Positions 829 to 31,455 are shown, numbered from the stretch's first letter. The stretch is DNA of 37,910 nt from a virus (IMGVR_UViG_3300017650_000008:1-37910), one strand, 5' to 3'. Numbers and translations are program-made. Notes: generated from the sequence alone by a model not told the origin.

Positions 829-1529
829 GCGAAAGCGACGAAACACGGCTGATGATCGCGGCTGGCGTCGCCGCGAGCGCCGCGGCGATCGCGTTTATCA
901 GCGCTGTGGGCAGCGACGACGAAAAGGGCAGCGCCCTGGCTGACGAGCTTGCCGTATGGTGGTTCGCCGACGGTGTGTCGAGCGATGCCGATCCCGACCA
1001 GATCCTGCTCGATCTGACGCGCTACTGCCTGCGCGAGGGCGTGGTCGGCGAGACGCTGTTCCGCAAGGCGGCGGCGATGGGCCTGCACGGCCTGGCCGGC
1101 GATATTTGGCGCACAGCGCCGCCGCGCATGAAGTTCGCTTACGAGGTGTTTGCCCGCACCGCGCCGGTGGCGCACCGGGCGCGCGCCGAAAGCGAGCAGG
1201 CATTGGGCCTGGGCGACGGGACGCCGCCGGCACCGACCAAAATTCCCCTCGGAGACAGCATCTATGAGCGGGTCGGCCGGTCCGACGAGCGCGAGCCAGG
1301 CTCGGTCGAGGCCGCCAATGCGGCCGCCGCCCAGGCCGAGGCCGAGCGCCAGGCGGTGGCGAAGCGCAAGGCGGCCGACGCGGATCGCCAGCGCCAGCGC
1401 CGCGCCGAAAAGAAGCGGGCAGCCGAGGCGGCTGCTGCCCAGGCGGAAGCAGCCCGGACGGAAGCACCTGCATCCGAACCGGCCAAACCGAAACGGGCGG
1501 CCAAGCCGAGGCGCAAACCCGATGCCTGA
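825..1529 (+). CDS. Hypothetical protein, 234 aa, with an Ala/Lys/Arg-rich basic tail
   Basis: AAGGAG RBS, operon packing and GC-rich third codon positions. Confidence 0.75.
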   Translation: MSESDETRLMIAAGVAASAAAIAFISAVGSDDEKGSALADELAVWWFADGVSSDADPDQILLDLTRYCLREGVVGETLFRKAAAMGLHGLAGDIWRTAPPRMKFAYEVFARTAPVAHRARAESEQALGLGDGTPPAPTKIPLGDSIYERVGRSDEREPGSVEAANAAAAQAEAERQAVAKRKAADADRQRQRRAEKKRAAEAAAAQAEAARTEAPASEPAKPKRAAKPRRKPDA

Positions 1530-16594: not shown

Positions 16595-18615
16595 TGGCGC
16601 GGCGGGCACGCAGCGCGGGCGATCTCGCGCAGTTTCAGGGAACCGGCCAGGTTGCCGGCGACCTGCCGAGAATGCCGGTCGACGATGGCTCTGATTGGAC
16701 CAAAGTCGCCTCGGTGTTCGCGGGCCTGTCCAATCAGCTCGGTTCGCTCGCCGATGCCGCCGCGCTGCGCGAGGGCCAGGCCGAGGGGCTGGAAAAGGGC
16801 ATGAAGGCCAGCCTGCCCAATGCCGGCGGCGAGCCCGTGCCGCTGGCGTTGCGGCGCGACGGCACGATCTCCGGCGAGGCGTCCGACAAGGCTGCGATCG
16901 CGACCTTTGCGCAGCGGCTCGATATCGGGCTGCGGTCGGAAATCGCGGCAGCGCATGACAGCCTGAAAGGCGATCCGGCGGCGCTGATCGGGCGGCTGAA
17001 CGAAATTCAGGCGACTTATGACGCCGATATCAATGCAGGGTCCGACCCGCGGCTCCGCGCGGCGCTGCAGATGCGGTTCGAGCAGGCCACGGCGACCTAC
17101 AAGCTCGACGCCGCCTGGCAGCGTGAACGGGCGCTGATCCAAGAGCGTAACACCACGACGCGCACGGCGCTGGCGGGCCAGCGGCAGGATATCGAGCGCC
17201 AGGCCTATATCCTCGGCGCCAACCCGGCCGGCGACAAGCTGCTCGCGCAACAGGTCGAGCAAGGCGATCGCGAGGTCGATGCGGCTGCGGCCGAGGGCGT
17301 CATCACGCCGGCCGAGCAGGTCGAGGAAAAAGCCAGGCGGCGCACGGCGGCGCTGACCGCCAAGGTACGCGGTGCGTTCGATGCGATCGAGGACCCGGCC
17401 GCGCAGGAACGCTTCGCCGCCAAACTGTCCGAGGACTGGGAAAACAAAAAGGGCGCGATCTCTGTTCTGGACAAGGATACCGCCGACACCCTGGCAGGCG
17501 AGCTCATGACCACGGCGCGCCGGCGTCAGGCCGAGCGCCAGGCTGAAACCGGCATCTCGCGCGCGGATCTCGCGCGCAAGCTCGACCAGGACGTCGCTAA
17601 CCTTCGCGCCACCGGCCAGCCGATGGCGTTCGATGGCGGGCCGCTGCAGCCGGCAGACGTGGCCAGGGTGCTCGGCGCCGACCGCGCTGCGGAATGGGCG
17701 GTGGCCCGCAACCAGGCGCGCAAGGTCTATGCCGCCACGGCCGATTTCGGGTCCATGTCGGCCGAGGCGATCGCCGGGCGTCTCGCCGGCCTCGACGATG
17801 GCCGCAACCCGGAACTGGCGGCCGAGGTTCGGGCCGAGGCGGAGCGGGTGCTCGACGCCCGCCGGCGCGATCCGGCCGGCGCCGTCGACGGTGCGTTCAA
17901 CCAGGTGCAGGCCGCCAAGCTTGCGCTCAACCCGGAAAATCCCGCGACCTACCAGGCGCTGGCCGACGCCCGGGTGAACGCGCAGGAAGCGGTCGGCGTC
18001 CCCGACCTTGCCCGCCAGCCACTGACGGAAGCCGAGGCGCGGGCGCTGGTCGGCCCGGTTCTCGCGGCCGCGCCAGATCAACGTGTCAAGGTGCTGCAGG
18101 GCGTTCTGACGGATGTCGAGCGTCGCTATGGCCCGCATGCCGATGCGGTCACGGCGCAGCTGCTGCACCAGGCCGGCGTCGACAGTGGTAGCGCAACCGC
18201 CAGCGCCGGCCTGCTGCGCCGCATCGGCGCCGGCGGTCGGCCATCGGCGGCCGATGCGCGCGCCGTCGACGTAGCCACGGAAACCCGGATGGCGGAGCAG
18301 GCTTTCCTGGTCGGCCGGCTCGGTTCCGACCCGGTGCTCGACAGCGTCGACCCCGCGCCGCAGGCCGGCGCGATCGCGGCCCCGCAGACGCAATCGCCGG
18401 GCGCGGCTCCCGCCAAGCCCAAAGCGCTGCCGCCGCCGCGGCCGAGCAGCCGCGCGCTGGAGATGCTGCGGCAGCGGCCGGACCTGGCGCCGAAATTCGA
18501 TGAGATGTTCGGGGCGGGCCAAGCCGAATATTACCGCGGTATCATGTCGAACGTGCCCGCCGCTGCCGGTCGGACGACGATCAATCCAGACGGTTCGGAG
18601 AATTGGGAACCATGA
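16594..18615 (+). CDS. Internal virion (ejection) protein 2, T7 gp15-like, 673 aa
   Basis: Long Ala-rich helical protein in the ejectosome position. Confidence 0.7.
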   Translation: MARRARSAGDLAQFQGTGQVAGDLPRMPVDDGSDWTKVASVFAGLSNQLGSLADAAALREGQAEGLEKGMKASLPNAGGEPVPLALRRDGTISGEASDKAAIATFAQRLDIGLRSEIAAAHDSLKGDPAALIGRLNEIQATYDADINAGSDPRLRAALQMRFEQATATYKLDAAWQRERALIQERNTTTRTALAGQRQDIERQAYILGANPAGDKLLAQQVEQGDREVDAAAAEGVITPAEQVEEKARRRTAALTAKVRGAFDAIEDPAAQERFAAKLSEDWENKKGAISVLDKDTADTLAGELMTTARRRQAERQAETGISRADLARKLDQDVANLRATGQPMAFDGGPLQPADVARVLGADRAAEWAVARNQARKVYAATADFGSMSAEAIAGRLAGLDDGRNPELAAEVRAEAERVLDARRRDPAGAVDGAFNQVQAAKLALNPENPATYQALADARVNAQEAVGVPDLARQPLTEAEARALVGPVLAAAPDQRVKVLQGVLTDVERRYGPHADAVTAQLLHQAGVDSGSATASAGLLRRIGAGGRPSAADARAVDVATETRMAEQAFLVGRLGSDPVLDSVDPAPQAGAIAAPQTQSPGAAPAKPKALPPPRPSSRALEMLRQRPDLAPKFDEMFGAGQAEYYRGIMSNVPAAAGRTTINPDGSENWEP

Positions 18616-21600
18616 ACGGCGCGGAACCAAACCCGTTCGCGGATCTGGCCGAACCGGAGCAGAGCGCCGCCGGGCCGGCCGCGAAGGCGCCAGGCGCCAA
18701 TCCGTTCGCGGACCTGGTCGACACCACGCCCGGGCAGGATCTTCGCGCCAGCCCGACGCCGAGCATCTGGGCGGCTGCGTTCGGCGGCGGCGGGCAGGAT
18801 GATCCCGGCTCGCTCGGCGAGCGTTTCATGCTCAACATGGAAAGCGCGCAGCGTGGCGGCACGCTTGCCGGCGCGGTCGCGGACGGCCTGCAGCGCGTCG
18901 CCGGCGCCGAGCGCGAAGCATCCTTCAAGGCGCAATATGAAAACCTGACGCAATGGCAGACGCCGCTCGAGGGCGTGGTGGCGTTTTCGGGCCAGCTGTT
19001 CGGCGGCATGGCGGCGCCGGAGAATTTCGTGCCGATCGGCGCCGGCGCCAAGATCGTCGAAGCGGCCGGCGGCAAGATCACGGGCGTGCTCGCCAGGGTG
19101 TTCGCCGGCGCGACCGATGCCGCGATCACCAATGCCGTGATCGACACGGGCGTGCAGCTCACGCAGATGGCCACGGGCGGCCGCGAGGAATTTTCGCCGA
19201 AGCAGCTGGCACTCTCGACCGGCGCCGGCGTGGTTGCCGGCGGCGCGTTCGGCGCGGCGTTCGGCCGTGAGGGCTCCACTGCCGCGCGTGCCGCCGAAGC
19301 GGGCACGCCGGAACCGCGCCCTGCGCCGGAACGGCCGCCAGGCCTGCCGGATGATCCGGTGCCTGTCCCCGAGCCTGTGCTGGCATCGGTCGGTCGCGCG
19401 CCACCGCCCGAGGGCGTGACGATCGTCGCCGATGACACGCCGCTCGGTCCAGTTGCCGAAGGGTTTTCCGGCCGCTGGCGCGAGGCCGTGGACTGGTTGA
19501 AAGGCAATGAAGGCGGCGACGCCCGCGCCGCTCTAAACCATCCCGAAGTTGGGCCGATCGACGTGATCTGGGGGGATGAGCGGCTCGGGCTCGCCAAGAT
19601 CGTCGCCCGGCATCCCGAGGTGCTCGACGATCTGCCGGAGCGGCTGTCGCGCATGAAAGTCGAAAGCCGGTCCGACAACCGCATCATCCTGGATGACCCC
19701 GACACGCGGGCGGTGGTGCGGCTGGACTATGACGGCGAAGCCAAGACCTGGCTGATGACGGCTTATGATGTCAGTGCGCGTCGCCGGCGCACCGGGGGTA
19801 CTACCGAGCGCCCCGGTGGTCGCCAGGAAGACACGTCCTCCTCCTCGCCGGCGGACGATAATCTAGCGTCTGTGGCTCGAAACGTCGAGGCCTTGCCCGA
19901 TGATCTCGGCGGAACGCCGCGCGACTTCCTCGCATCCTCCATGACGTTCCGCCCTCGCGGCGCGCTGCGCAGGCCGGATGCCGGCATTGCCGCGCCGGAC
20001 GCCGAGCTGCCCGCGGCCGTGCGGCTGCGCGACGTCGGTAACGAGCTGGTGGCGGCGCTCGATCCGGCGGCCGTGCGGCAGGGGCGGTTCACAGTGCGCG
20101 GCGGCAAGGGCGGCAAGGTGATGGGCCAGTATTCGCCCGGCACCGGCGTGGTGCGCGTCCGCAATATCGACGATTTCGAGACTTTGACGCATGAGCTCGG
20201 CCACCATGTCGAGATCGCGATCGGCAAGCCGGTGCAGCAGCTGATGCAGACGCATGCCGCCGAGCTGCTGCCGATGGCCTATCCGGGCGCGGCGCCCAGG
20301 GCGAAGCTCAAAGAGGGTTTCGCGGAATATATGCGGCTGCGCGTAACAAATCCTCCCTACGCGGCCAAATACGCGCCGACCTTCAACGCTGCGCTCGATG
20401 CCCTGCTCGCCAAGGATCATGGCGACATGGCCGCGGCGCTGGCAAAGGCGAGCGAGGCCTATGGGCAATTTCTGCAGCAGCCGTCGCGGGCCGCGGTCGG
20501 CTCGACGATCGTCTCGAACAAGCGGCCGAGCTGGTGGGAGAAGGCCGGCGACGACTTCGAAACGCTGGGCGTGCGCGGCACGATCGCCGATTGGCTCGGC
20601 CGCGCCTACACCATGCTGGTCGATGATCTCAACCCGATGCAGCGCGGCGTGCGCATGCTGGCGGCGATCCACCAGGCCAATACCGGCCGAGCGCTCGATC
20701 TCAAGGTTGCCGACGATCCCTATAAGCTGCTGCGCATGATCCGCGGCGCCGGCGGCGCGGGGCATATGGACGTGATGTACGGCGTCCATTCCTATGGCTC
20801 CTTCCAGCCGGGCAGCGCCAGCCTGCGCGATGCGCTTGTCGAGGCGGTCGGCGCGCCCAGCATGTTCGGCAAGCTCGAGGATCAGGGCCTGAAAGACTTC
20901 GGCTCCTATCTGTGGTCACGCCGGGCACTCGGCGAATGGGAGCGGTTCCGCGCCGGCGAGATCCCCAATCCGCCGGATAAGCTGACCGCAGGCGATCACG
21001 CCGTCACCGTGGCCGAATTTGAAAAGTCAAACCCGGCCTTCGTCACGGCCGCCGAAAAGGTCCATGACTGGTCACGCGCGCTTTGGACCAAGAAATACCA
21101 GGCGGGCCTGATCTCGCGCGAGCAATGGGAAAACGGCCTCAACATCAAAGATTATGTGCCGGGCCTGCGCCATTTCGATCCGGAGGAAGCCGCCACCAAG
21201 GGTGGGCAACCGCGCTCGGCCAAGGCCGACCAGGTCAAGCGGTTTCGCGGTTCCTCGCGCGATGTCGTCAACCCGATTGAGAGCCTGCTGGCCGACGCCT
21301 ATGAAACGTCGATCGCGATTGCGCGCAATGACGCGGTGCGCGCGCTCGACCGCCTGGCGCGCCGTGCCGGCAATGGCAGCGGCCGCATCGCCGAGCGTAT
21401 TCCGAGCCACCAGCTCAAGGCCACGTCGGTCGATCCGCTCGAGGCGATCGACAGCGCCGGCAAAGCCGCGGGCCTATCGGCGATCGACCGCATCATGCTG
21501 CGCGACGCGGCCGAGGCCGGCCTGGGCGATGCCAAGGCCACCATCTTCCGCCCGGCCGTGATCAACGAAAAGGGCGAGCCGATCCTGTTCTTTCGCGATG

Positions 21601-23600
21601 GCGGCGAGCTGCGCGCGCTGCGCCTCGCCGATGGGGATTTCGGTCGCGAGATGCTGGTGAATTTCGAGATGGCGCCGGCCCGAGTGGCGGATATTTTCAT
21701 TCACGCCGGCGCCAAGGCATCGGGGCTGCTGCGCACGGGCATTACAACCTCGCCCGACTTCCTGATCGCCAATCTGGCGCGCGACGTCATGACGTCGATG
21801 ATCTTCTATGGCCGGCCGTTCCATCGCCTGGCGCAGACCGCGCGCGGGATGGGCGACGAGATCTTTTCCGGCGAGGCGGCCCGGCAGTACAATGCGGCCG
21901 CCGGCATCATGGGCGGCGCCAATACCGCGGCGTTGCGGGATGCCAGCCTGACGCGGGACCTGCAGGCGTTGTCGAAAAAGGGCTATGCCGCACAGCGCCT
22001 CACCAGCGCCAAAGGCCTGCTCGAGCTAACCGAGCTCGCCGAAACCGGCCAGCGCATTGGCCTGTTCAAGACCTTTGTCGACGAGGCCAAAGCGCGGGGG
22101 CTGTCCGAGCACGATGCCGTGCTCGAGGCGGCCTGGCGCGCCCGCGATTATATCGACTTCGATCGACATGGGTCGCAGCTCGATGCGTTCCGCCGCCTGG
22201 TCCCGTTCTTCAATGCCGCGATCCAGGGCTTCGACAAGGGCGCGCGCCAGATGATCGCGCCGCTGGTGCGCCGTGGTGAGAAACGTGTGCTGGCCGAAGA
22301 CAGTCGGGCGGCGGCCGAAGCGACCAAGGCGTGGGGCCGGTTGTCGGTGCTCGGCGGCGCCGGCTTCGCCTGGCATGCGCTGATGAGCCAGGATGAAGAT
22401 TATCGCGAGCTTTCGCCCTCAACGCGCGCCACCCATTGGGCGATCAAGATCGGCGGCAAGTTCGCGGTGATCCCCAAGCCTTACGAGGCGATCCCGTTCC
22501 TGTCGGCGCTCGAGGCGGGATGGGATGCGCTGGCGCTGCGCGATGCACGCTGGACGGAAAGCTTTCGCGAGGCACTGTTCACGGCCATGCCGCCCTCGGT
22601 GCTCGAGGGCAATCCGATCATCAAGACCTATTTCGAGCTGCAGGGAAACACCAACAGTTTCACCGGCGCGCCGATCGTGCCGGAAAACCTGCAGGGCCTC
22701 GAGCCCCGATTGCAATACACGGCGCGCACCTCGGCATTCGCCAAGGCGCTGGGCGGGGTGATCAACTGGCCGCCGGCCAAAATCGACCATGTGGTGATGA
22801 ACCATCTCGGCAGCTGGGGGCGCGGCCTGCTCGCGATGTCCGACCTCGCCAGCGGCGAAAAGCCGGCGCTCGGCTGGGACGATGCGCCGTTCACGCAGCG
22901 GTTCATCAAGGACGCCTCGAAGGGCAGCCGGTCGACCCGTGCCTTTTGGGATCAGATGTCGCAGAAAGGCGGGAAGTTCGAGCAGGCGGCGCAGAGCTAT
23001 CGCTATTTGATGAACGCCGGTGATGAGTCCGGCGCGAGCAGCTACCTCGCCAATCTCGAGGCGCCCGCGCGGGCCTATGTCGCCGTGTCGATGATGGATG
23101 CCTCGGTACGGCGCATGCACCCGATGGTGCGAGCGCGCGATGCCGTGACGGCGATCAGCGCGTTGCGGCGCGAGGTTTCGTTCAATCGAGCGCGCGGCGC
23201 CGATGGCGAGGTGACATTGACGCGCGCGCAGCGCCAGGCGGCCGACGACATTCTTGGCGATCTCTCGATGGCCGAGGCGCGCAATGCGCTTGTGGCGGTC
23301 AAGGAGCGGGGATATGGCAATCGGCAGCCCGTCGATACCTCGACCTATCTGCGCGAGCTCGAGGCGGTATCCCCGGAGCTGCTCGCCGTGCTTGGTGATC
23401 GATACACCACTGCCAAAGTCGCGCCGGGGGCGGCCGTCGCCGACGCCTGGCGGGAGCTTGAGCCGCGCGTGCTGCGCGATGGAACGGCCGCCCAGACGTT
23501 GGACTTGGTCCACCAGATGAATGTTGCCGGCTTCGAGCTTTCCGGGCGCCGCATAAAACCGCGGGCGAAGCCTGCCGTGCCCGGCCGCCCGAACGGTTGA
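18612..23600 (+). CDS. Large ejection/polyvalent protein (~1662 aa): PBECR-type RNase domain, HExxH zincin motif, C-terminal LPD38-like domain
   Basis: NPFADL repeated twice at the N-terminus. GPIDVIWG..GLAKIVARHPE..TWLMTAYD at ~19420-19770. THELGHH...EGFAE from ~20190. IPKPYE..NSFTGAPIVP..PAKIDH at ~22400-22920. Confidence 0.82.
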   Translation: MNGAEPNPFADLAEPEQSAAGPAAKAPGANPFADLVDTTPGQDLRASPTPSIWAAAFGGGGQDDPGSLGERFMLNMESAQRGGTLAGAVADGLQRVAGAEREASFKAQYENLTQWQTPLEGVVAFSGQLFGGMAAPENFVPIGAGAKIVEAAGGKITGVLARVFAGATDAAITNAVIDTGVQLTQMATGGREEFSPKQLALSTGAGVVAGGAFGAAFGREGSTAARAAEAGTPEPRPAPERPPGLPDDPVPVPEPVLASVGRAPPPEGVTIVADDTPLGPVAEGFSGRWREAVDWLKGNEGGDARAALNHPEVGPIDVIWGDERLGLAKIVARHPEVLDDLPERLSRMKVESRSDNRIILDDPDTRAVVRLDYDGEAKTWLMTAYDVSARRRRTGGTTERPGGRQEDTSSSSPADDNLASVARNVEALPDDLGGTPRDFLASSMTFRPRGALRRPDAGIAAPDAELPAAVRLRDVGNELVAALDPAAVRQGRFTVRGGKGGKVMGQYSPGTGVVRVRNIDDFETLTHELGHHVEIAIGKPVQQLMQTHAAELLPMAYPGAAPRAKLKEGFAEYMRLRVTNPPYAAKYAPTFNAALDALLAKDHGDMAAALAKASEAYGQFLQQPSRAAVGSTIVSNKRPSWWEKAGDDFETLGVRGTIADWLGRAYTMLVDDLNPMQRGVRMLAAIHQANTGRALDLKVADDPYKLLRMIRGAGGAGHMDVMYGVHSYGSFQPGSASLRDALVEAVGAPSMFGKLEDQGLKDFGSYLWSRRALGEWERFRAGEIPNPPDKLTAGDHAVTVAEFEKSNPAFVTAAEKVHDWSRALWTKKYQAGLISREQWENGLNIKDYVPGLRHFDPEEAATKGGQPRSAKADQVKRFRGSSRDVVNPIESLLADAYETSIAIARNDAVRALDRLARRAGNGSGRIAERIPSHQLKATSVDPLEAIDSAGKAAGLSAIDRIMLRDAAEAGLGDAKATIFRPAVINEKGEPILFFRDGGELRALRLADGDFGREMLVNFEMAPARVADIFIHAGAKASGLLRTGITTSPDFLIANLARDVMTSMIFYGRPFHRLAQTARGMGDEIFSGEAARQYNAAAGIMGGANTAALRDASLTRDLQALSKKGYAAQRLTSAKGLLELTELAETGQRIGLFKTFVDEAKARGLSEHDAVLEAAWRARDYIDFDRHGSQLDAFRRLVPFFNAAIQGFDKGARQMIAPLVRRGEKRVLAEDSRAAAEATKAWGRLSVLGGAGFAWHALMSQDEDYRELSPSTRATHWAIKIGGKFAVIPKPYEAIPFLSALEAGWDALALRDARWTESFREALFTAMPPSVLEGNPIIKTYFELQGNTNSFTGAPIVPENLQGLEPRLQYTARTSAFAKALGGVINWPPAKIDHVVMNHLGSWGRGLLAMSDLASGEKPALGWDDAPFTQRFIKDASKGSRSTRAFWDQMSQKGGKFEQAAQSYRYLMNAGDESGASSYLANLEAPARAYVAVSMMDASVRRMHPMVRARDAVTAISALRREVSFNRARGADGEVTLTRAQRQAADDILGDLSMAEARNALVAVKERGYGNRQPVDTSTYLRELEAVSPELLAVLGDRYTTAKVAPGAAVADAWRELEPRVLRDGTAAQTLDLVHQMNVAGFELSGRRIKPRAKPAVPGRPNG
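19780..19856 (-). ncRNA. Predicted ~75-nt antisense structured RNA (three-way junction) inside the polyvalent gene
   Basis: Outer stem 19780-19789/19846-19856; hairpins 19790-19797/19811-19818 and 19825-19831/19836-19842. The latter has a G-U pair only on the minus strand. A promoter lies immediately upstream. Confidence 0.55.
19860..19888 (-). promoter_or_regulatory. Sigma70-like antisense promoter TCGACG-N17-TAGATT
   Basis: -35 at 19888-19883 and -10 at 19865-19860. The predicted +1 (~19853) falls at the 5' arm of the RNA stem. Confidence 0.55.
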
Positions 23601-27240: not shown

Positions 27241-27630
27241 ATGCCGCGTGTCAGTCAGGATTATAACCAGGGCGCGAGCTACAGCGTGCCGGTCGGCGGG
27301 CTGTCGATCGCGGAGTTCGAGTTCGACGAAGCGGGTGACAGCGACCCCGTCTATCTGTCGGGGCGGTTTTGCATTCAGGTCACGGGCGACGCCACGGCCT
27401 TTGTGGCGGGCGTGGAGCGGTCTACCCGTGATCCGGCCGGTGGCTCGCCCAATTGGGCGCCCGCCGATGTAGAGGGTATTTCTGGCGATCTGACGGACGG
27501 TTTGACGCCGGTGCTCTATGACGAGCCGGGCGCGGCCTGGTGGCGTGTCTCGGTCGATACGCTGACCGGCGGCGCGGCGCTGGTGGTGTTCTCCGGCTCC
27601 GAGGTCAAGCCGGAGATCGACCCGGCATGA
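27241..27630 (+). CDS. Acidic beta-rich hypothetical protein, 129 aa (possible fibre/spike adaptor)
   Basis: AAGGA RBS; coupled (ATGA) to the glycosidase gene. Confidence 0.65.
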   Translation: MPRVSQDYNQGASYSVPVGGLSIAEFEFDEAGDSDPVYLSGRFCIQVTGDATAFVAGVERSTRDPAGGSPNWAPADVEGISGDLTDGLTPVLYDEPGAAWWRVSVDTLTGGAALVVFSGSEVKPEIDPA

Positions 27631-29612
27631 CGCTGCGCCTGCGAGGGCATCTGCGCGCCGCCAGCAGTTTGCGCGCCTCGGCCGACCTGCGCGTGCGGCC
27701 CGGCACCGCCGGCGGGCAGACGCCGCTGCCGCGCTGGATCGGCGGCAAGGGCTTCTCGTTCTCAAACACGTTCGGCTTTATCGACACATGGTCGGCCGGC
27801 CGCAACGAGGTGGTGACGGACCAGACGCTCACGGATCTCGCGGCCGCCGGCTGCTCGTTCGTGCGGATCCATACGCAGGCCACTTTCCTCTATGACGCGG
27901 CCGACCATGCCATGCGCCTGGCGCGGCTCGACGAGGTGTTTCTGCTGGTCGATCGGGTGCTGGCCGCCGGCATGAAGGTCATCGTCAATCATCGGCCGCC
28001 AATCGAGGGGCAGACGATCGACGCCGGCGCGGTGGTCGACGACTATGAAACCGAAGGGCCGAACTGGCTGCTGGATCTCGCGGTGCTCGACGCCTGGGCC
28101 GAACGGCTGCTGCCCTATGACCAGCGCGTCGCGTTCGAGGAGTTCAACGAAGTCGAAACCGATATCGATTTCATCACGGCGATGAAAGTGGCGCGCGTCG
28201 AGCGCTTCCGGGCCATCAATCAGTACACGACGGTGATCGTCGGCGGTGATGAATATGGCAACGCCTATGGCCTCGCCTCGCTCGATCCGCAGGCATTCGC
28301 CCATCTCGGCAATGTCATCTTCAAATTTTTCTTCTACGAGAGCGGCGTCTTCAAGGACGCCGGCGTCGACGGCCTGTTCAAGCACGTTAGCGGGTTGTCC
28401 TATCCGGTGGTGCCGTCCGAGAAGGATGCAGTCGTCGCGGCGGCGTTCGCCGGGATCGATGGCGATAGCGGCATATCGGACAAACAAGCGGCCAAGGACG
28501 CGCTGAGCTATTTCGATCCCGGTACGGAACAATGGGTCGGTTTCCTTGACTATTGGTTCGACGGCATCCTTGATCTGGGCTGGAAGCAATCGGTACTCGA
28601 TGTCGTGTCCAATTGGGCCGACCTCAACGACATCGAGCCTGCCACGCACGTGATCTGCATCGAGCACGGCACCAGCACGACGGGCGCCACCTCGAAACTA
28701 TCGCAGGTGGCGTTCCTGCTTGACGATCGTGTCGAGATGGAGCTGCGCGGCATCCGCATGCAGGGCGTCTGGAATTACGATGCTGCGCCCTACAGCATCG
28801 GGCTCGATCCGGATCTGTTGCTCGCGCTCGGCTTCACGCCTACCGATGCATTCGAGGCCGAAACGACGGCGCTGCTGGCTGAGCTCGCCAATCCGCTGAG
28901 CGCCTATGCGCAACAGGTCATCAACGCGGCGCATCGCCAGCTGATGGAGGCCGATGTTTGGGACAGCCTGGACCTGTGGTTGTTCATGCGCGGCGAAGAA
29001 AACACGCCCGATCTGCCCTACATCAACTGGCGGAATTATGCCGAGGTCGGCAATGTCGAGCTTGGCAACGCCACATGGGAACCGGCCGAAGACGGTCGAG
29101 GTTATGCGCTGTCTCTTGATGGGTCTACGCCCACGGTCATCAATACGCAGCATGCTATGAAGTCTGGCAGCGCCACTGCTGAAAGTTTCCATATTGGCGT
29201 TGAGCGCATCTCGGACGATGGGAAAGACATCGGGCGGGTCGACGTTCTCGACCAATGGTTTTCTTCCGGTGCTCGACCGGGCGCATTCTTCGCCTATGCG
29301 GGGAACCTCGGTGACCTGAATGTCCGCGCCGGTCCAGCCGAAATCATTCGGCATATCATGACCAACCGCGACAATGCGGACACCTTCGAGATTTACGACA
29401 ACGGCAGCCTAACCACGCAAGTCTCTCAGGCTACCGATGCCGGCAAGTTGGACGACAACGGGGAAAACAAGGTCATCATCGGCCAGTCCGGTTTCACCAT
29501 CGGCGGGCAGCTAGGTCTTGTCCACAAGGGCAGCGATCTTGACGAAAGCCAGCGCCATGCGCTTACGCGGGTTCGCTACATCCTCAATCGAGCTTGGCCG
29601 CAGGCGGCTTAG
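27627..29612 (+). CDS. GH5-like (cellulase family) glycoside hydrolase with a C-terminal ConA/LamG-like domain
   Basis: TIM-barrel motifs AGCSFVRI and GMKVIVNH; acid/base AFEEFNE (~28140); putative nucleophile ICIEHG (~28660). Confidence 0.75.
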   Translation: MTLRLRGHLRAASSLRASADLRVRPGTAGGQTPLPRWIGGKGFSFSNTFGFIDTWSAGRNEVVTDQTLTDLAAAGCSFVRIHTQATFLYDAADHAMRLARLDEVFLLVDRVLAAGMKVIVNHRPPIEGQTIDAGAVVDDYETEGPNWLLDLAVLDAWAERLLPYDQRVAFEEFNEVETDIDFITAMKVARVERFRAINQYTTVIVGGDEYGNAYGLASLDPQAFAHLGNVIFKFFFYESGVFKDAGVDGLFKHVSGLSYPVVPSEKDAVVAAAFAGIDGDSGISDKQAAKDALSYFDPGTEQWVGFLDYWFDGILDLGWKQSVLDVVSNWADLNDIEPATHVICIEHGTSTTGATSKLSQVAFLLDDRVEMELRGIRMQGVWNYDAAPYSIGLDPDLLLALGFTPTDAFEAETTALLAELANPLSAYAQQVINAAHRQLMEADVWDSLDLWLFMRGEENTPDLPYINWRNYAEVGNVELGNATWEPAEDGRGYALSLDGSTPTVINTQHAMKSGSATAESFHIGVERISDDGKDIGRVDVLDQWFSSGARPGAFFAYAGNLGDLNVRAGPAEIIRHIMTNRDNADTFEIYDNGSLTTQVSQATDAGKLDDNGENKVIIGQSGFTIGGQLGLVHKGSDLDESQRHALTRVRYILNRAWPQAA

Positions 29613-30220: not shown

Positions 30221-31455
30221 AGCTCCACGCCCTGCGCCTCGAGCCATCTGGCGAGGTTGCTCATGGCACCTTTGGCGAGGTGCTCGTCCAGCTGCAGATA
30301 GTGTTTCAGGATGGTGACAATCGATCCCGGCGTGTGCCCGCTGATCGAGGCGATCTCCGGAATGGTGCAGCCGGAGCGGGCGAGCCAGGTGATGGCCGTA
30401 TCGCGCAGATCCTGAAAATTCAGCGTGGCTACCGAGGGGCACGGCGGCAGGCCATGCTCGTTCGATCCCGCCACGGCCAGCGCCCGTACATCGGCGTAGC
30501 GATGCCGGAAATTGCTGGCGCCCCAGGCCTGGCCGGTGGCCTCGCACACCACGATCGCCTCCGGAATGACTTTGCGCGCTCGGCGGCGATCGTCGGCCAG
30601 GCGCATGCGCGCGATCAGCTGCGGCACGGCGAAGATCGACACCTTTGCCCGCGTCTTGGCCTGCTCCACCACGAACGCCTCACCGGCCGCCATGACGTCG
30701 ACCAGGCTGCGATTGCGATCGCGCGGTTCGACCAGCGCCAGAATGTCGCCCTGGCGCTGGCCGGACAGCAGGCCGAGGAAAACGGCATCGCCGATCGACG
30801 GCATGGCGAGCGCGTCGGCGGCCGCAACCAAAGCGCGGATCTCGGCATCGGTGGCAATGCGGACCCGGGGTGGCGGCAGCGGCAAATCGAGATCGTGGCA
30901 GGGATTGGCTTTCAGGCGCCAATCCGTCGACATCGTGCCCCAGGTCCACGCGGCCGACAGCACCATGATCGCACCGCGCGCCATCGCCAGGCTGCGAGCC
31001 TTGCGCATATATTCGAACATGGCTTTCACGGCCGGCTTGTCGATGACGGCCACGGGCGCCTTGGCAAACAGCTCCCATTCCTGGGGTTTCTTTTTGGCCA
31101 CTTCCTCGCGGGTGCGTGGCTTGAAGCGGATGGCGGCCGCCTTCTTCCTGTAGTCGGCCTGGGTGTTCGGCCGTTTCGACAGGAAGTCGTTGGACTTGAA
31201 ATACGCCTCGAGCAGATCGTCGATGGCGCGGCCGCGCTGCGCGATGGTTTTGGGTGCCTTGCTGCTGCCGGCGGCGGCCACGTCCTGGTTGAGCGCCGCG
31301 GCGGCCGCGCAGGCCTGCTCGAACGGCAGCCAGTGGCCGAGCTCGTCTTTCAGGTCGCGGCCCTTCCAGCCCAGCACGCGCAGCCGCGGGCCTGGATGCC
31401 AGCGCGGCCGGCCGCCGCGCCAGAGCATGAATTGGGGGATCTGAGCCTTGGCCAT
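30217..31455 (-). CDS. int: Tyrosine recombinase (phage integrase)
   Basis: Catalytic motifs GQRQGD, QAKT, FQDLRDT, SGHT and LKHY; adjacent to attP. Start taken at MAKAQIP. Confidence 0.95.
   Translation of the reverse strand: MAKAQIPQFMLWRGGRPRWHPGPRLRVLGWKGRDLKDELGHWLPFEQACAAAAALNQDVAAAGSSKAPKTIAQRGRAIDDLLEAYFKSNDFLSKRPNTQADYRKKAAAIRFKPRTREEVAKKKPQEWELFAKAPVAVIDKPAVKAMFEYMRKARSLAMARGAIMVLSAAWTWGTMSTDWRLKANPCHDLDLPLPPPRVRIATDAEIRALVAAADALAMPSIGDAVFLGLLSGQRQGDILALVEPRDRNRSLVDVMAAGEAFVVEQAKTRAKVSIFAVPQLIARMRLADDRRRARKVIPEAIVVCEATGQAWGASNFRHRYADVRALAVAGSNEHGLPPCPSVATLNFQDLRDTAITWLARSGCTIPEIASISGHTPGSIVTILKHYLQLDEHLAKGAMSNLARWLEAQGVEL

Follow-up and report, generated by a model that had tools for sequence, protein, structure and literature searches.

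The phage record IMGVR_UViG_3300017650_000008 (37,910 nucleotides (nt), referred to as a whole as the window) contains a gene for a polyvalent protein in which a PBECR1-like domain, a predicted RNase, is followed by a linker whose minus strand carries a predicted promoter and a fold of three helices (P1, P2 and P3), together called the unit in the following. Comparison with the sequences behind related domains indicates that the minus-strand three-helix fold with its conserved promoter signature is real and constitutes a widespread RNA family. All coordinates given for promoter and fold in an initial annotation, which had been made from the window sequence alone, were found to be correct on re-reading (Table 1), as was the remark that the single imperfect pair of P2, G-U on the minus strand, would read A-C on the plus strand. 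The observation is confirmed through the relatives of the unit and not through the window sequence by itself.

Promoter and fold behind related domains

A total of 154 domain loci including the window were gathered, two with less than 200 nt of downstream sequence were dropped, and the remaining 152 were reduced to 83 representative loci, with 80% identity in the 150 nt downstream of the domain as the threshold (L-numbers denote domain loci or long loci, P-numbers orthologous proteins). Genome searches yielded few loci (two in one search, 3/401 genomes in another); L160 and L161 gave no match to the RNA model R2 introduced below. The conserved antisense promoter that had been predicted behind homologous domains was recovered: the minus-strand pattern TAnnnT is present in 41/83 loci in the +80 bin and in 28/83 in the +100 bin, whereas the other 33 bins hold 1-19, and the plus-strand counts for the same two bins are 16 and 6 of 83. 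The best -10 box was picked without regard to the upstream sequence and was plausible in 70/83 loci, being of sigma-70 type in 57; TTG stands exactly 17 nt upstream in 30 of these 57 (0-4 at other offsets). The form of the promoter tracks lineage, because two further types occur by lineage, namely TAnnTTTG (11/83 loci within one bin, 0-3 in other bins), which we take to be the Bacteroidota promoter consensus, and TGTG[CG]TA, found in Helicobacter prophages. At the level of the peptide, the promoter signature is specific and insensitive.

The covarying structure that had also been expected was found, with all three helices kept through compensatory changes and with the position and spacing of the promoter kept. 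A 9-nt motif derived from sequence alone anchored 63/83 loci (some of them wrongly), and 72 axes of pairing were tried. The best axis is the P3 helix closing the 13-nt loop, for which 82% of the cells were paired, versus 50% with partners swapped between loci (standard deviation 2.2, maximum 58% in 2000). Read as minus strand, the P3 cells of the anchored loci contain 47 G-U versus 17 A-C. RNAalifold recovered P3 unaided in a plain MAFFT alignment of 36 hand-picked loci and did not recover P1 and P2, because insertions and deletions misalign these two helices. Regarding P1, the mean duplex energy in 54 loci was -12.8 kcal/mol with the own partner versus -7.3 kcal/mol with permuted partners, a difference somewhat inflated by base-composition matching. 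When the window structure was laid on a MAFFT alignment of 17 hand-picked loci, 92.9% of the cells were paired (slid controls, 40-49%) and 20/23 pairs showed changes on both sides, including 7/8 pairs of P1 and 5/7 of P2. A model-fitted alignment of 66 matches, three of them plus-strand mirrors, yielded 93.4% paired cells, a figure that leans to the model. The RNA model R2 matched 54/83 loci at E <= 0.1 on the minus strand less than 200 nt from the domain, 26 of them outside its training set. In a test for H-type pseudoknots, the longest complementary run between loops was 3.19 versus 2.99 in shuffled sequences (4/300 as high), the kinship of the sequences not being controlled. As an observation apart, L138 and L140 show a plus-strand TTGCAA-N17-TA box and a common conserved stretch in place of the antisense unit, 20-170 nt behind a domain remnant.

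The constraint acts on the nucleotides and not on the protein, because the P3 loop motif is found in three reading frames (53/6/4 of 63) and because L111 and L112, in which a stop codon follows 6-7 codons after the domain, keep the unit almost wholly past that stop. The same kind of evidence makes chance an exceedingly improbable explanation, according to which GC-rich linker codons happen to fold and an Asn-Ile dipeptide happens to read as a -10 box: covariation goes far beyond the controls, the -10 box itself occurs in each of the three reading frames (46/17/7), and non-coding DNA retains the unit. What can be said for chance is that the family effect against codon shuffles is modest (17/70 loci below z -2 versus 5/63 controls, p 0.015) and that the fold energy of the window is no better than that of synonymous-codon shuffles (z 0.04), an outcome that the initial annotation had named in advance as refuting its proposal. 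The latter value does not refute the unit, because covariation across the relatives outweighs the energy of the window sequence. Compared with dinucleotide shuffles, the window fold has a z of -1.62 on the minus strand and -0.87 on the plus strand. Its ensemble pairing probabilities are about 0.56 for P1, 0.42 for P2 and above 0.9 for P3, and the minimum-energy structure shifts with the ends chosen; the folding signal of the single sequence is weak. The P1 arm of the window is palindromic, whereas relatives have ordinary inverted arms, and only two A are found in the first 12 nt behind the window domain.

The promoter of the window has 8/12 consensus matches and lies below the cut-off of a standard promoter scan, which did not list it. 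Under a promoter matrix built from the relatives with the window excluded, it is one of two antisense matches in the 5-kb gene. The other match, TATATT at about 20325 (minus strand, residue 575 of the polyvalent gene), has a poor -35 box and no RNA model match.

A lineage-matched promoter ends exactly at the first helix. This argues against two explanations in which the promoter would be incidental and which together are very improbable: a structure acting at the DNA level (a single-strand recombination or processing site that moves the domain) and a short antisense peptide gene. The G-T asymmetry would also suit single-stranded DNA, and the cassette is mobile, as a DNA site would require; in favor of a peptide, the window transcript has AGGAGG and then GTG, opening a frame of 23 codons. 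However, 32/70 loci have the GTG, and the frames that it opens range from 3 to at least 155 codons. The small antisense peptide was rejected as a candidate, as no conserved peptide was found and frame lengths vary.

Table 1. Features of the window discussed in the text
Feature	Position	Strand	Remarks
Predicted -35 box TCGACG	19883..19888	-	TTG at equal spacing in 30/57 relatives
Predicted -10 box TAGATT	19860..19865	-	17 nt from -35 box; minus-strand TAnnnT peaks 80-119 nt behind domain
P1, 5' arm CGCCGGCG	19846..19853	-	starts 7 nt past -10 box (6 nt between), predicted RNA 5' end; pairs with 19789-19782
P2 hairpin AGGAGGA/UCUUCCU	19825..19845	-	7 base pairs, loop GGACGUG; loop 6-13 nt in relatives, often AGCUGUGUCA
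Junction J2/3	19819..19824	-	optional extra hairpin in many relatives (folds, alignment)
P3 hairpin CACCGGGG/CCCCGGUG	19790..19818	-	8 base pairs; 13-nt loop 19810-19798; family pattern GUCNRUMSU
P1, 3' arm	19782..19789	-	pairs with 19853-19846; U-rich tail of many relatives absent in window
PBECR1-like domain, predicted BECR-fold RNase	19470..19769	+	residues 290-389
His337, candidate catalytic His of N-terminal helix	19611..19613	+	His in 66/70 readable representative loci
Thr386, candidate active-site Thr of last strand (WLMTAY)	19758..19760	+	invariant in alignment A1
Polyvalent protein gene	18603..23600	+	1665 residues from TTG; ATG at 18612 (open reading frame, translation)
HELGH metallopeptidase-type (HEXXH) motif of scaffold	20190..20204	+	H530, E531, H534 invariant in 26 orthologues
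LPD38 domain of scaffold	22392..22895	+	Pfam PF18857, E 3e-36

Coupling of the unit to PBECR and related domains

The window domain matches Pfam PF18809 with an E-value of 6e-4 and 20.8 bits, which is under the curated cut-off of 27.6, and relatives at 45-59% identity score above that cut-off. Its structure model (predicted local distance difference test, 92) has helices (40-61) followed by four strands that form a meander sheet, in agreement with the BECR feature tested, an N-terminal helix and then a four- to five-stranded sheet. The nearest solved chains are mostly BECR toxins and the matches are weak (Z 3.8-5.0 to CdiA-CT, RelE, a colicin-type RNase and colicin D). Foldseek yielded no match of the model in the PDB at E 0.001, and no MazF/ToxN-type chain was among the matches listed in a wide structural search, an absence that says nothing on exclusion. 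His337 in the helix and Thr386 in the last strand match the PBECR active-site pattern described in section 19 of PMC5512222 (His in the helix, Ser or Thr in the last strand), by which His337 would be the catalytic His; this motif is unreadable in 13/83 representative loci. By sequence and model, the window domain is a predicted RNase. PBECR domains are reported in up to 26% of polyvalent proteins (PMC5512222).

The initial annotation had suggested that nuclease and RNA form one mobile module, and their distribution bears this out: unrelated scaffolds carry the RNA behind the domain, and orthologues without the domain do not have it. The scaffolds with a unit behind PBECR1 are of the LPD38, LPD22, ParB, helicase-methylase and glycoside-hydrolase types. 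The scaffold of the window has 120 orthologues, 27 of them with a PBECR1-like domain, and a profile of the peptide behind the domain, built from these 27, matches only one of the 93 others (P0198, four times). Regarding the DNA of 23 orthologous genes, none of which was used in training, the domain is present in L264 only, and so are the RNA (two copies) and the promoter (L246 may not span the insertion site). The long loci, 508 kb in all, gave 20 R2 matches, and all 20 lie directly behind PBECR1, two of them as plus-strand mirrors. The tail peptide is present in two to four copies in 10/27 orthologues. Extra copies are 41-80% alike, and a promoter of its own precedes most of them. Of 13 units in six multi-copy DNA loci, 11 resemble a unit found elsewhere more closely than their neighbor, the best of about 60 comparisons having been taken, which favors this outcome.

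Several single records belong here. The four tail-peptide copies of P0198 lie in residues 619-687 and 981-1052, and no PBECR1 domain was detected in this protein; they are a possible orphan array. In the decayed gene of L145, three units with promoters (531-613, 1185-1267 and 1323-1408, minus strand) follow domain ends that are broken or truncated; here the RNA has persisted longer than the nuclease. The PBECR1 match of phage PBC5 (L002:601-924) is outside any coding sequence annotated in the public record, and that of phage Itty13 (L005:601-915) lies opposite two annotated ones; both are likely annotation gaps.

Units behind other domains were sought in four long genes with TAnnTTTG promoters. 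This motif has 23 antisense occurrences in 63 kb, and a partial PBECR5 match was excluded. At a distance of 65-155 nt, an antisense box follows 4/4 PBECR1, 1/1 PBECR2, 2/2 MuF-C and 3/3 LPD3 domains (10/10) and 0/20 other domain ends (ParB, pyrophosphatase, methylase, helicase, kinase, ART and other LPD). Among the domains tested, the unit is restricted to BECR-type and LPD3 domains, and the shape of the RNA differs between the PBECR1, PBECR2, MuF-C and LPD3 families. The partial PBECR5 match (L194:11204-11500) has no TAnnTTTG box nearby and may be an exception. In L267, two near-identical PBECR1 copies (4685 and 6533) are each followed by PBECR2, with no unit behind PBECR1 and a unit after the second domain. 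A strong TAnnTTTG promoter and a long stem at L187:8275-8371 (minus strand) follow a stretch with no Pfam match and may mark an unrecognised BECR-type domain; units could serve to find such domains.

In four Helicobacter prophage genes, the motif TGTG[CG]TAnnnT occurs nine times antisense and never sense, each time 73-169 nt behind a PBECR domain, and covers 8/15 PBECR domains and 0/5 ParB or ART domains. The motif was picked after two of the genes had been seen; the H. pylori phage gene contributes two independent matches and the H. acinonychis gene none. One match in the H. pylori phage gene has a three-helix fold with a 13-nt loop starting GUGUC. In H. pylori itself, HP0488 is presumably a paralogue of HP1116. 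The tables of PMC549213 equate HP1116 with jhp1044, which belongs to a polyvalent gene family with four PBECR domains (PMC5512222). A table in PMC8322730, which attributes the entries to Sharma 2010, gives the RNAs HPnc5970 and HPnc6000 as antisense in HP1116, and HPnc2240 and HPnc2250 as antisense in HP0488. HPnc5970 and HPnc6000 are uncharacterised and are placed by gene only, in a table with no link to PBECR domains; they may be expressed members of the same design.

Proposed function of the RNA and known systems

We consider the chances about even that the RNA from the antisense unit is a cognate inhibitor of the predicted virion-delivered RNase. The unit would give rise to an RNA of about 72 nt that binds and inhibits the enzyme, i.e., an antidote inside the toxin's own gene, and its GU-rich conserved 13-nt loop might be offered to the active site as a substrate mimic. 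Host RNA polymerase would transcribe the RNA from prophage and incoming phage DNA alike. The RNA would thus silence the RNase during mass production of the virion protein and render lysogens immune, whereas protein packaged without RNA would act on the RNA of a cell just infected until the antidote is made from the phage genome. C-terminal MuF toxins have a downstream immunity gene, for which there is no space behind an internal domain of a polyprotein, and the overprinted antisense RNA may take that role. Transcription, a discrete RNA, binding, inhibition and packaging without RNA are what we infer for this scheme. A broader version is doubtful and has a modest chance of being right. In it, tailed phages would inject a panel of BECR RNases as domains of one virion protein, each with its overprinted RNA antidote; injection would poison the cell, which would be spared only if the phage DNA is transcribed, so that destroying the incoming genome would be punished; lysogens would be immune to kin, and arrays of orphan units would be libraries of RNA immunity against rival phages.

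Ordinary cis-antisense control, which would silence a leaky toxic domain or block superinfecting kin by base pairing in the manner of STnc6030 or a type I antitoxin, is unlikely. There is precedent in a phage DNA-injection gene (PMC7067206), the H. pylori RNAs are listed as antisense (PMC8322730), and complementarity follows automatically from the position of the unit. A cis-antisense RNA, however, stays complementary at any sequence, and neither a 13-nt loop held constant through lineages and frames nor a separate shape for each domain family would be required of it; the fixed loop and the family-specific shapes therefore point to recognition by protein. Nearly the whole unit of L111 and L112 is located beyond the stop codon, and other domains that are likely to be toxic (ART, kinase, ParB) have no unit.

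That the RNA is an activating partner or specificity factor, forming a ribonucleoprotein whose loops select the target, or a designated substrate whose cleavage times expression or reports superinfection, is unlikely. The cassette evidence also fits an activating partner, the shapes are family-specific, units are found behind MuF-C although this domain is predicted to be inactive in phage Mu (PMC5512222), and T4 RegB is, according to the same source, a phage BECR RNase that cuts phage RNA. The loops are conserved, unlike variable guides, and a freshly injected protein would find no RNA in a naive cell. Units that remain after domain decay or are collected in arrays are more readily explained by protection than by a cofactor, and orphans and arrays point away from activation; the units that outlast decayed domains in L145 resemble orphan immunity genes. 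The occurrence of orphan copies, together with the existence of phage RNA mimics of antitoxins (PMC5086642), would also fit an anti-defence role like that of pseudo-ToxI, in which the RNA is a decoy for a nuclease of the host or of a rival and travels with the domain in an RNA-warfare cassette. This is improbable, as it leaves unexplained why the unit keeps to a distance of 65-169 nt behind each BECR-type domain and is found at no other place in 508 kb.

A number of points weigh against an inhibitor RNA, in addition to the codon-shuffle result for the window. No match to R2 was obtained at E 0.1 in 29/83 loci, several of which fold correctly by eye; L138, L140, L144 and L148 show no unit, and a few short AT-rich remnants show nothing. 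Regarding Helicobacter, 7/15 PBECR domains are without the strict promoter motif and R2 matched none of the units. No terminator was called at the window unit by a standard scan. The RNase activity of PBECR domains is itself predicted, with weak fold matches (Z <= 5.0), and MuF-C domains carry a unit in spite of their predicted inactivity in Mu. Adjoining DNA is co-inherited regardless of function. On a quick domain tree that shows clustering only (5/71 strong branches; 74/84 rows, short ones excluded), closely placed domains carry a mixture of P2 loop types A and B (type A: 3 rows, 3 changes), which speaks against strict one-to-one pairing via the P2 loop; because of this mixture, specificity, if any, is not set by the P2 loop alone.

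The RNA had initially been called tRNA-like, which was not borne out: neither ARAGORN nor Rfam gave a match at the site, the P3 loop has 13 instead of 7 nt (13 nt in 61/63 model-aligned rows), and there is no T-loop or CCA. In a search with Rfam 15, the window had no matches at the gathering score, and the two chance-level matches in 19600-20100 do not lie on the unit. The comparison with a type III toxin-antitoxin pair, also made at the outset, holds as an analogy and fails in the defining features of toxin fold, antitoxin position and repeat array. In ToxIN, CptIN and TenpIN an endoribonuclease stands beside a small structured RNA, which is proposed to occupy the active site (PMC5086642), and the likeness consists in a nuclease adjoining a structured RNA with one RNA type per toxin family. 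Type III toxins have the MazF/Kid-like ToxN fold, whereas the window domain is PBECR1-like by sequence, helix-plus-meander by model and part of a virion protein. The type III antitoxin lies upstream on the same strand, with a terminator before the toxin, whereas the window unit lies downstream, antisense and inside the open reading frame. The former is a co-transcribed array of repeats, H-type pseudoknots, that is processed to monomers, whereas the window has one unit with its own promoter, predicted to form a three-helix junction.

Three further systems are close in part. AbiF/RCd22 of a C. difficile prophage likewise has a toxin neutralised by a bound structured non-coding RNA, in cis and in trans (10.1101/2025.04.15.648962), but AbiF is reported there as an Abi_2 family member encoded by a separate defence gene, with neither a virion domain nor an overprinted antisense RNA. 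MuF toxins are swappable domains on a phage head protein, with proposed delivery along with the DNA and a neighboring immunity gene that protects lysogens (PMC5576092); in that account a small predicted immunity protein is encoded downstream of a C-terminal toxin, whereas the window domain is internal (1276 residues follow) and its neighbor is a predicted RNA. STnc6030 of Salmonella prophage BTP1 is an antisense RNA in late genes that overlaps a DNA-injection gene and is expressed in the lysogen, but it is 786 nt long, base pairing is proposed, and the available text mentions neither a compact conserved fold nor any connection with an RNase domain (PMC7067206).

The RNA family behind PBECR domains is apparently undescribed: no description of an RNA paired with these domains was found in the literature searched, mostly outside subscription journals. 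The words 'antisense' and 'noncoding' are absent from the main text of PMC5512222, and the PBECR section proposes no partner RNA. As far as its available text goes, that paper names neither the targets of PBECR domains nor how phages survive making them; the unit is a short, clonable partner that makes both testable. 'Low-complexity linkers' of polyvalent proteins may be reread as RNA genes invisible to intergenic screens, a blind spot that the Minerva preprint states (10.64898/2026.09.22.753630). If the RNA inhibits the enzyme, RNA antitoxins would be extended to the BECR fold, which is paired with protein antidotes in the literature compared, and to virion-delivered toxins.

Gene and genome setting

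The window contains terminase, portal, capsid, tail-tube, endolysin and integrase genes (PHROG/Pfam matches) and likely represents a temperate podophage. By its PHROG/Pfam neighbors, the polyvalent gene is the third and last of three genes between the tail-tube and tail-fibre genes. The gene order is that of Bordetella phage BPP-1 bbp13-bbp9, with the polyvalent gene at the bbp10 position after the internal virion genes. By analogy, the polyvalent protein is likely an internal virion protein that is ejected into the host, since the position of its gene matches bbp10. The HELGH motif of the scaffold is a candidate for freeing the PBECR1-like domain after injection, a release role proposed for such peptidase motifs in PMC5512222. 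An ARAGORN call of a tRNA-Gly at 31228-31310 (plus strand), inside the integrase coding region on the other strand, is GC-rich, without a clear T loop and probably false. A gene of 690 residues at 27540-29612 (plus strand), between the lysis genes and the integrase, matches glycoside hydrolase family 5 (E 3e-12) and appears to be a cargo gene.

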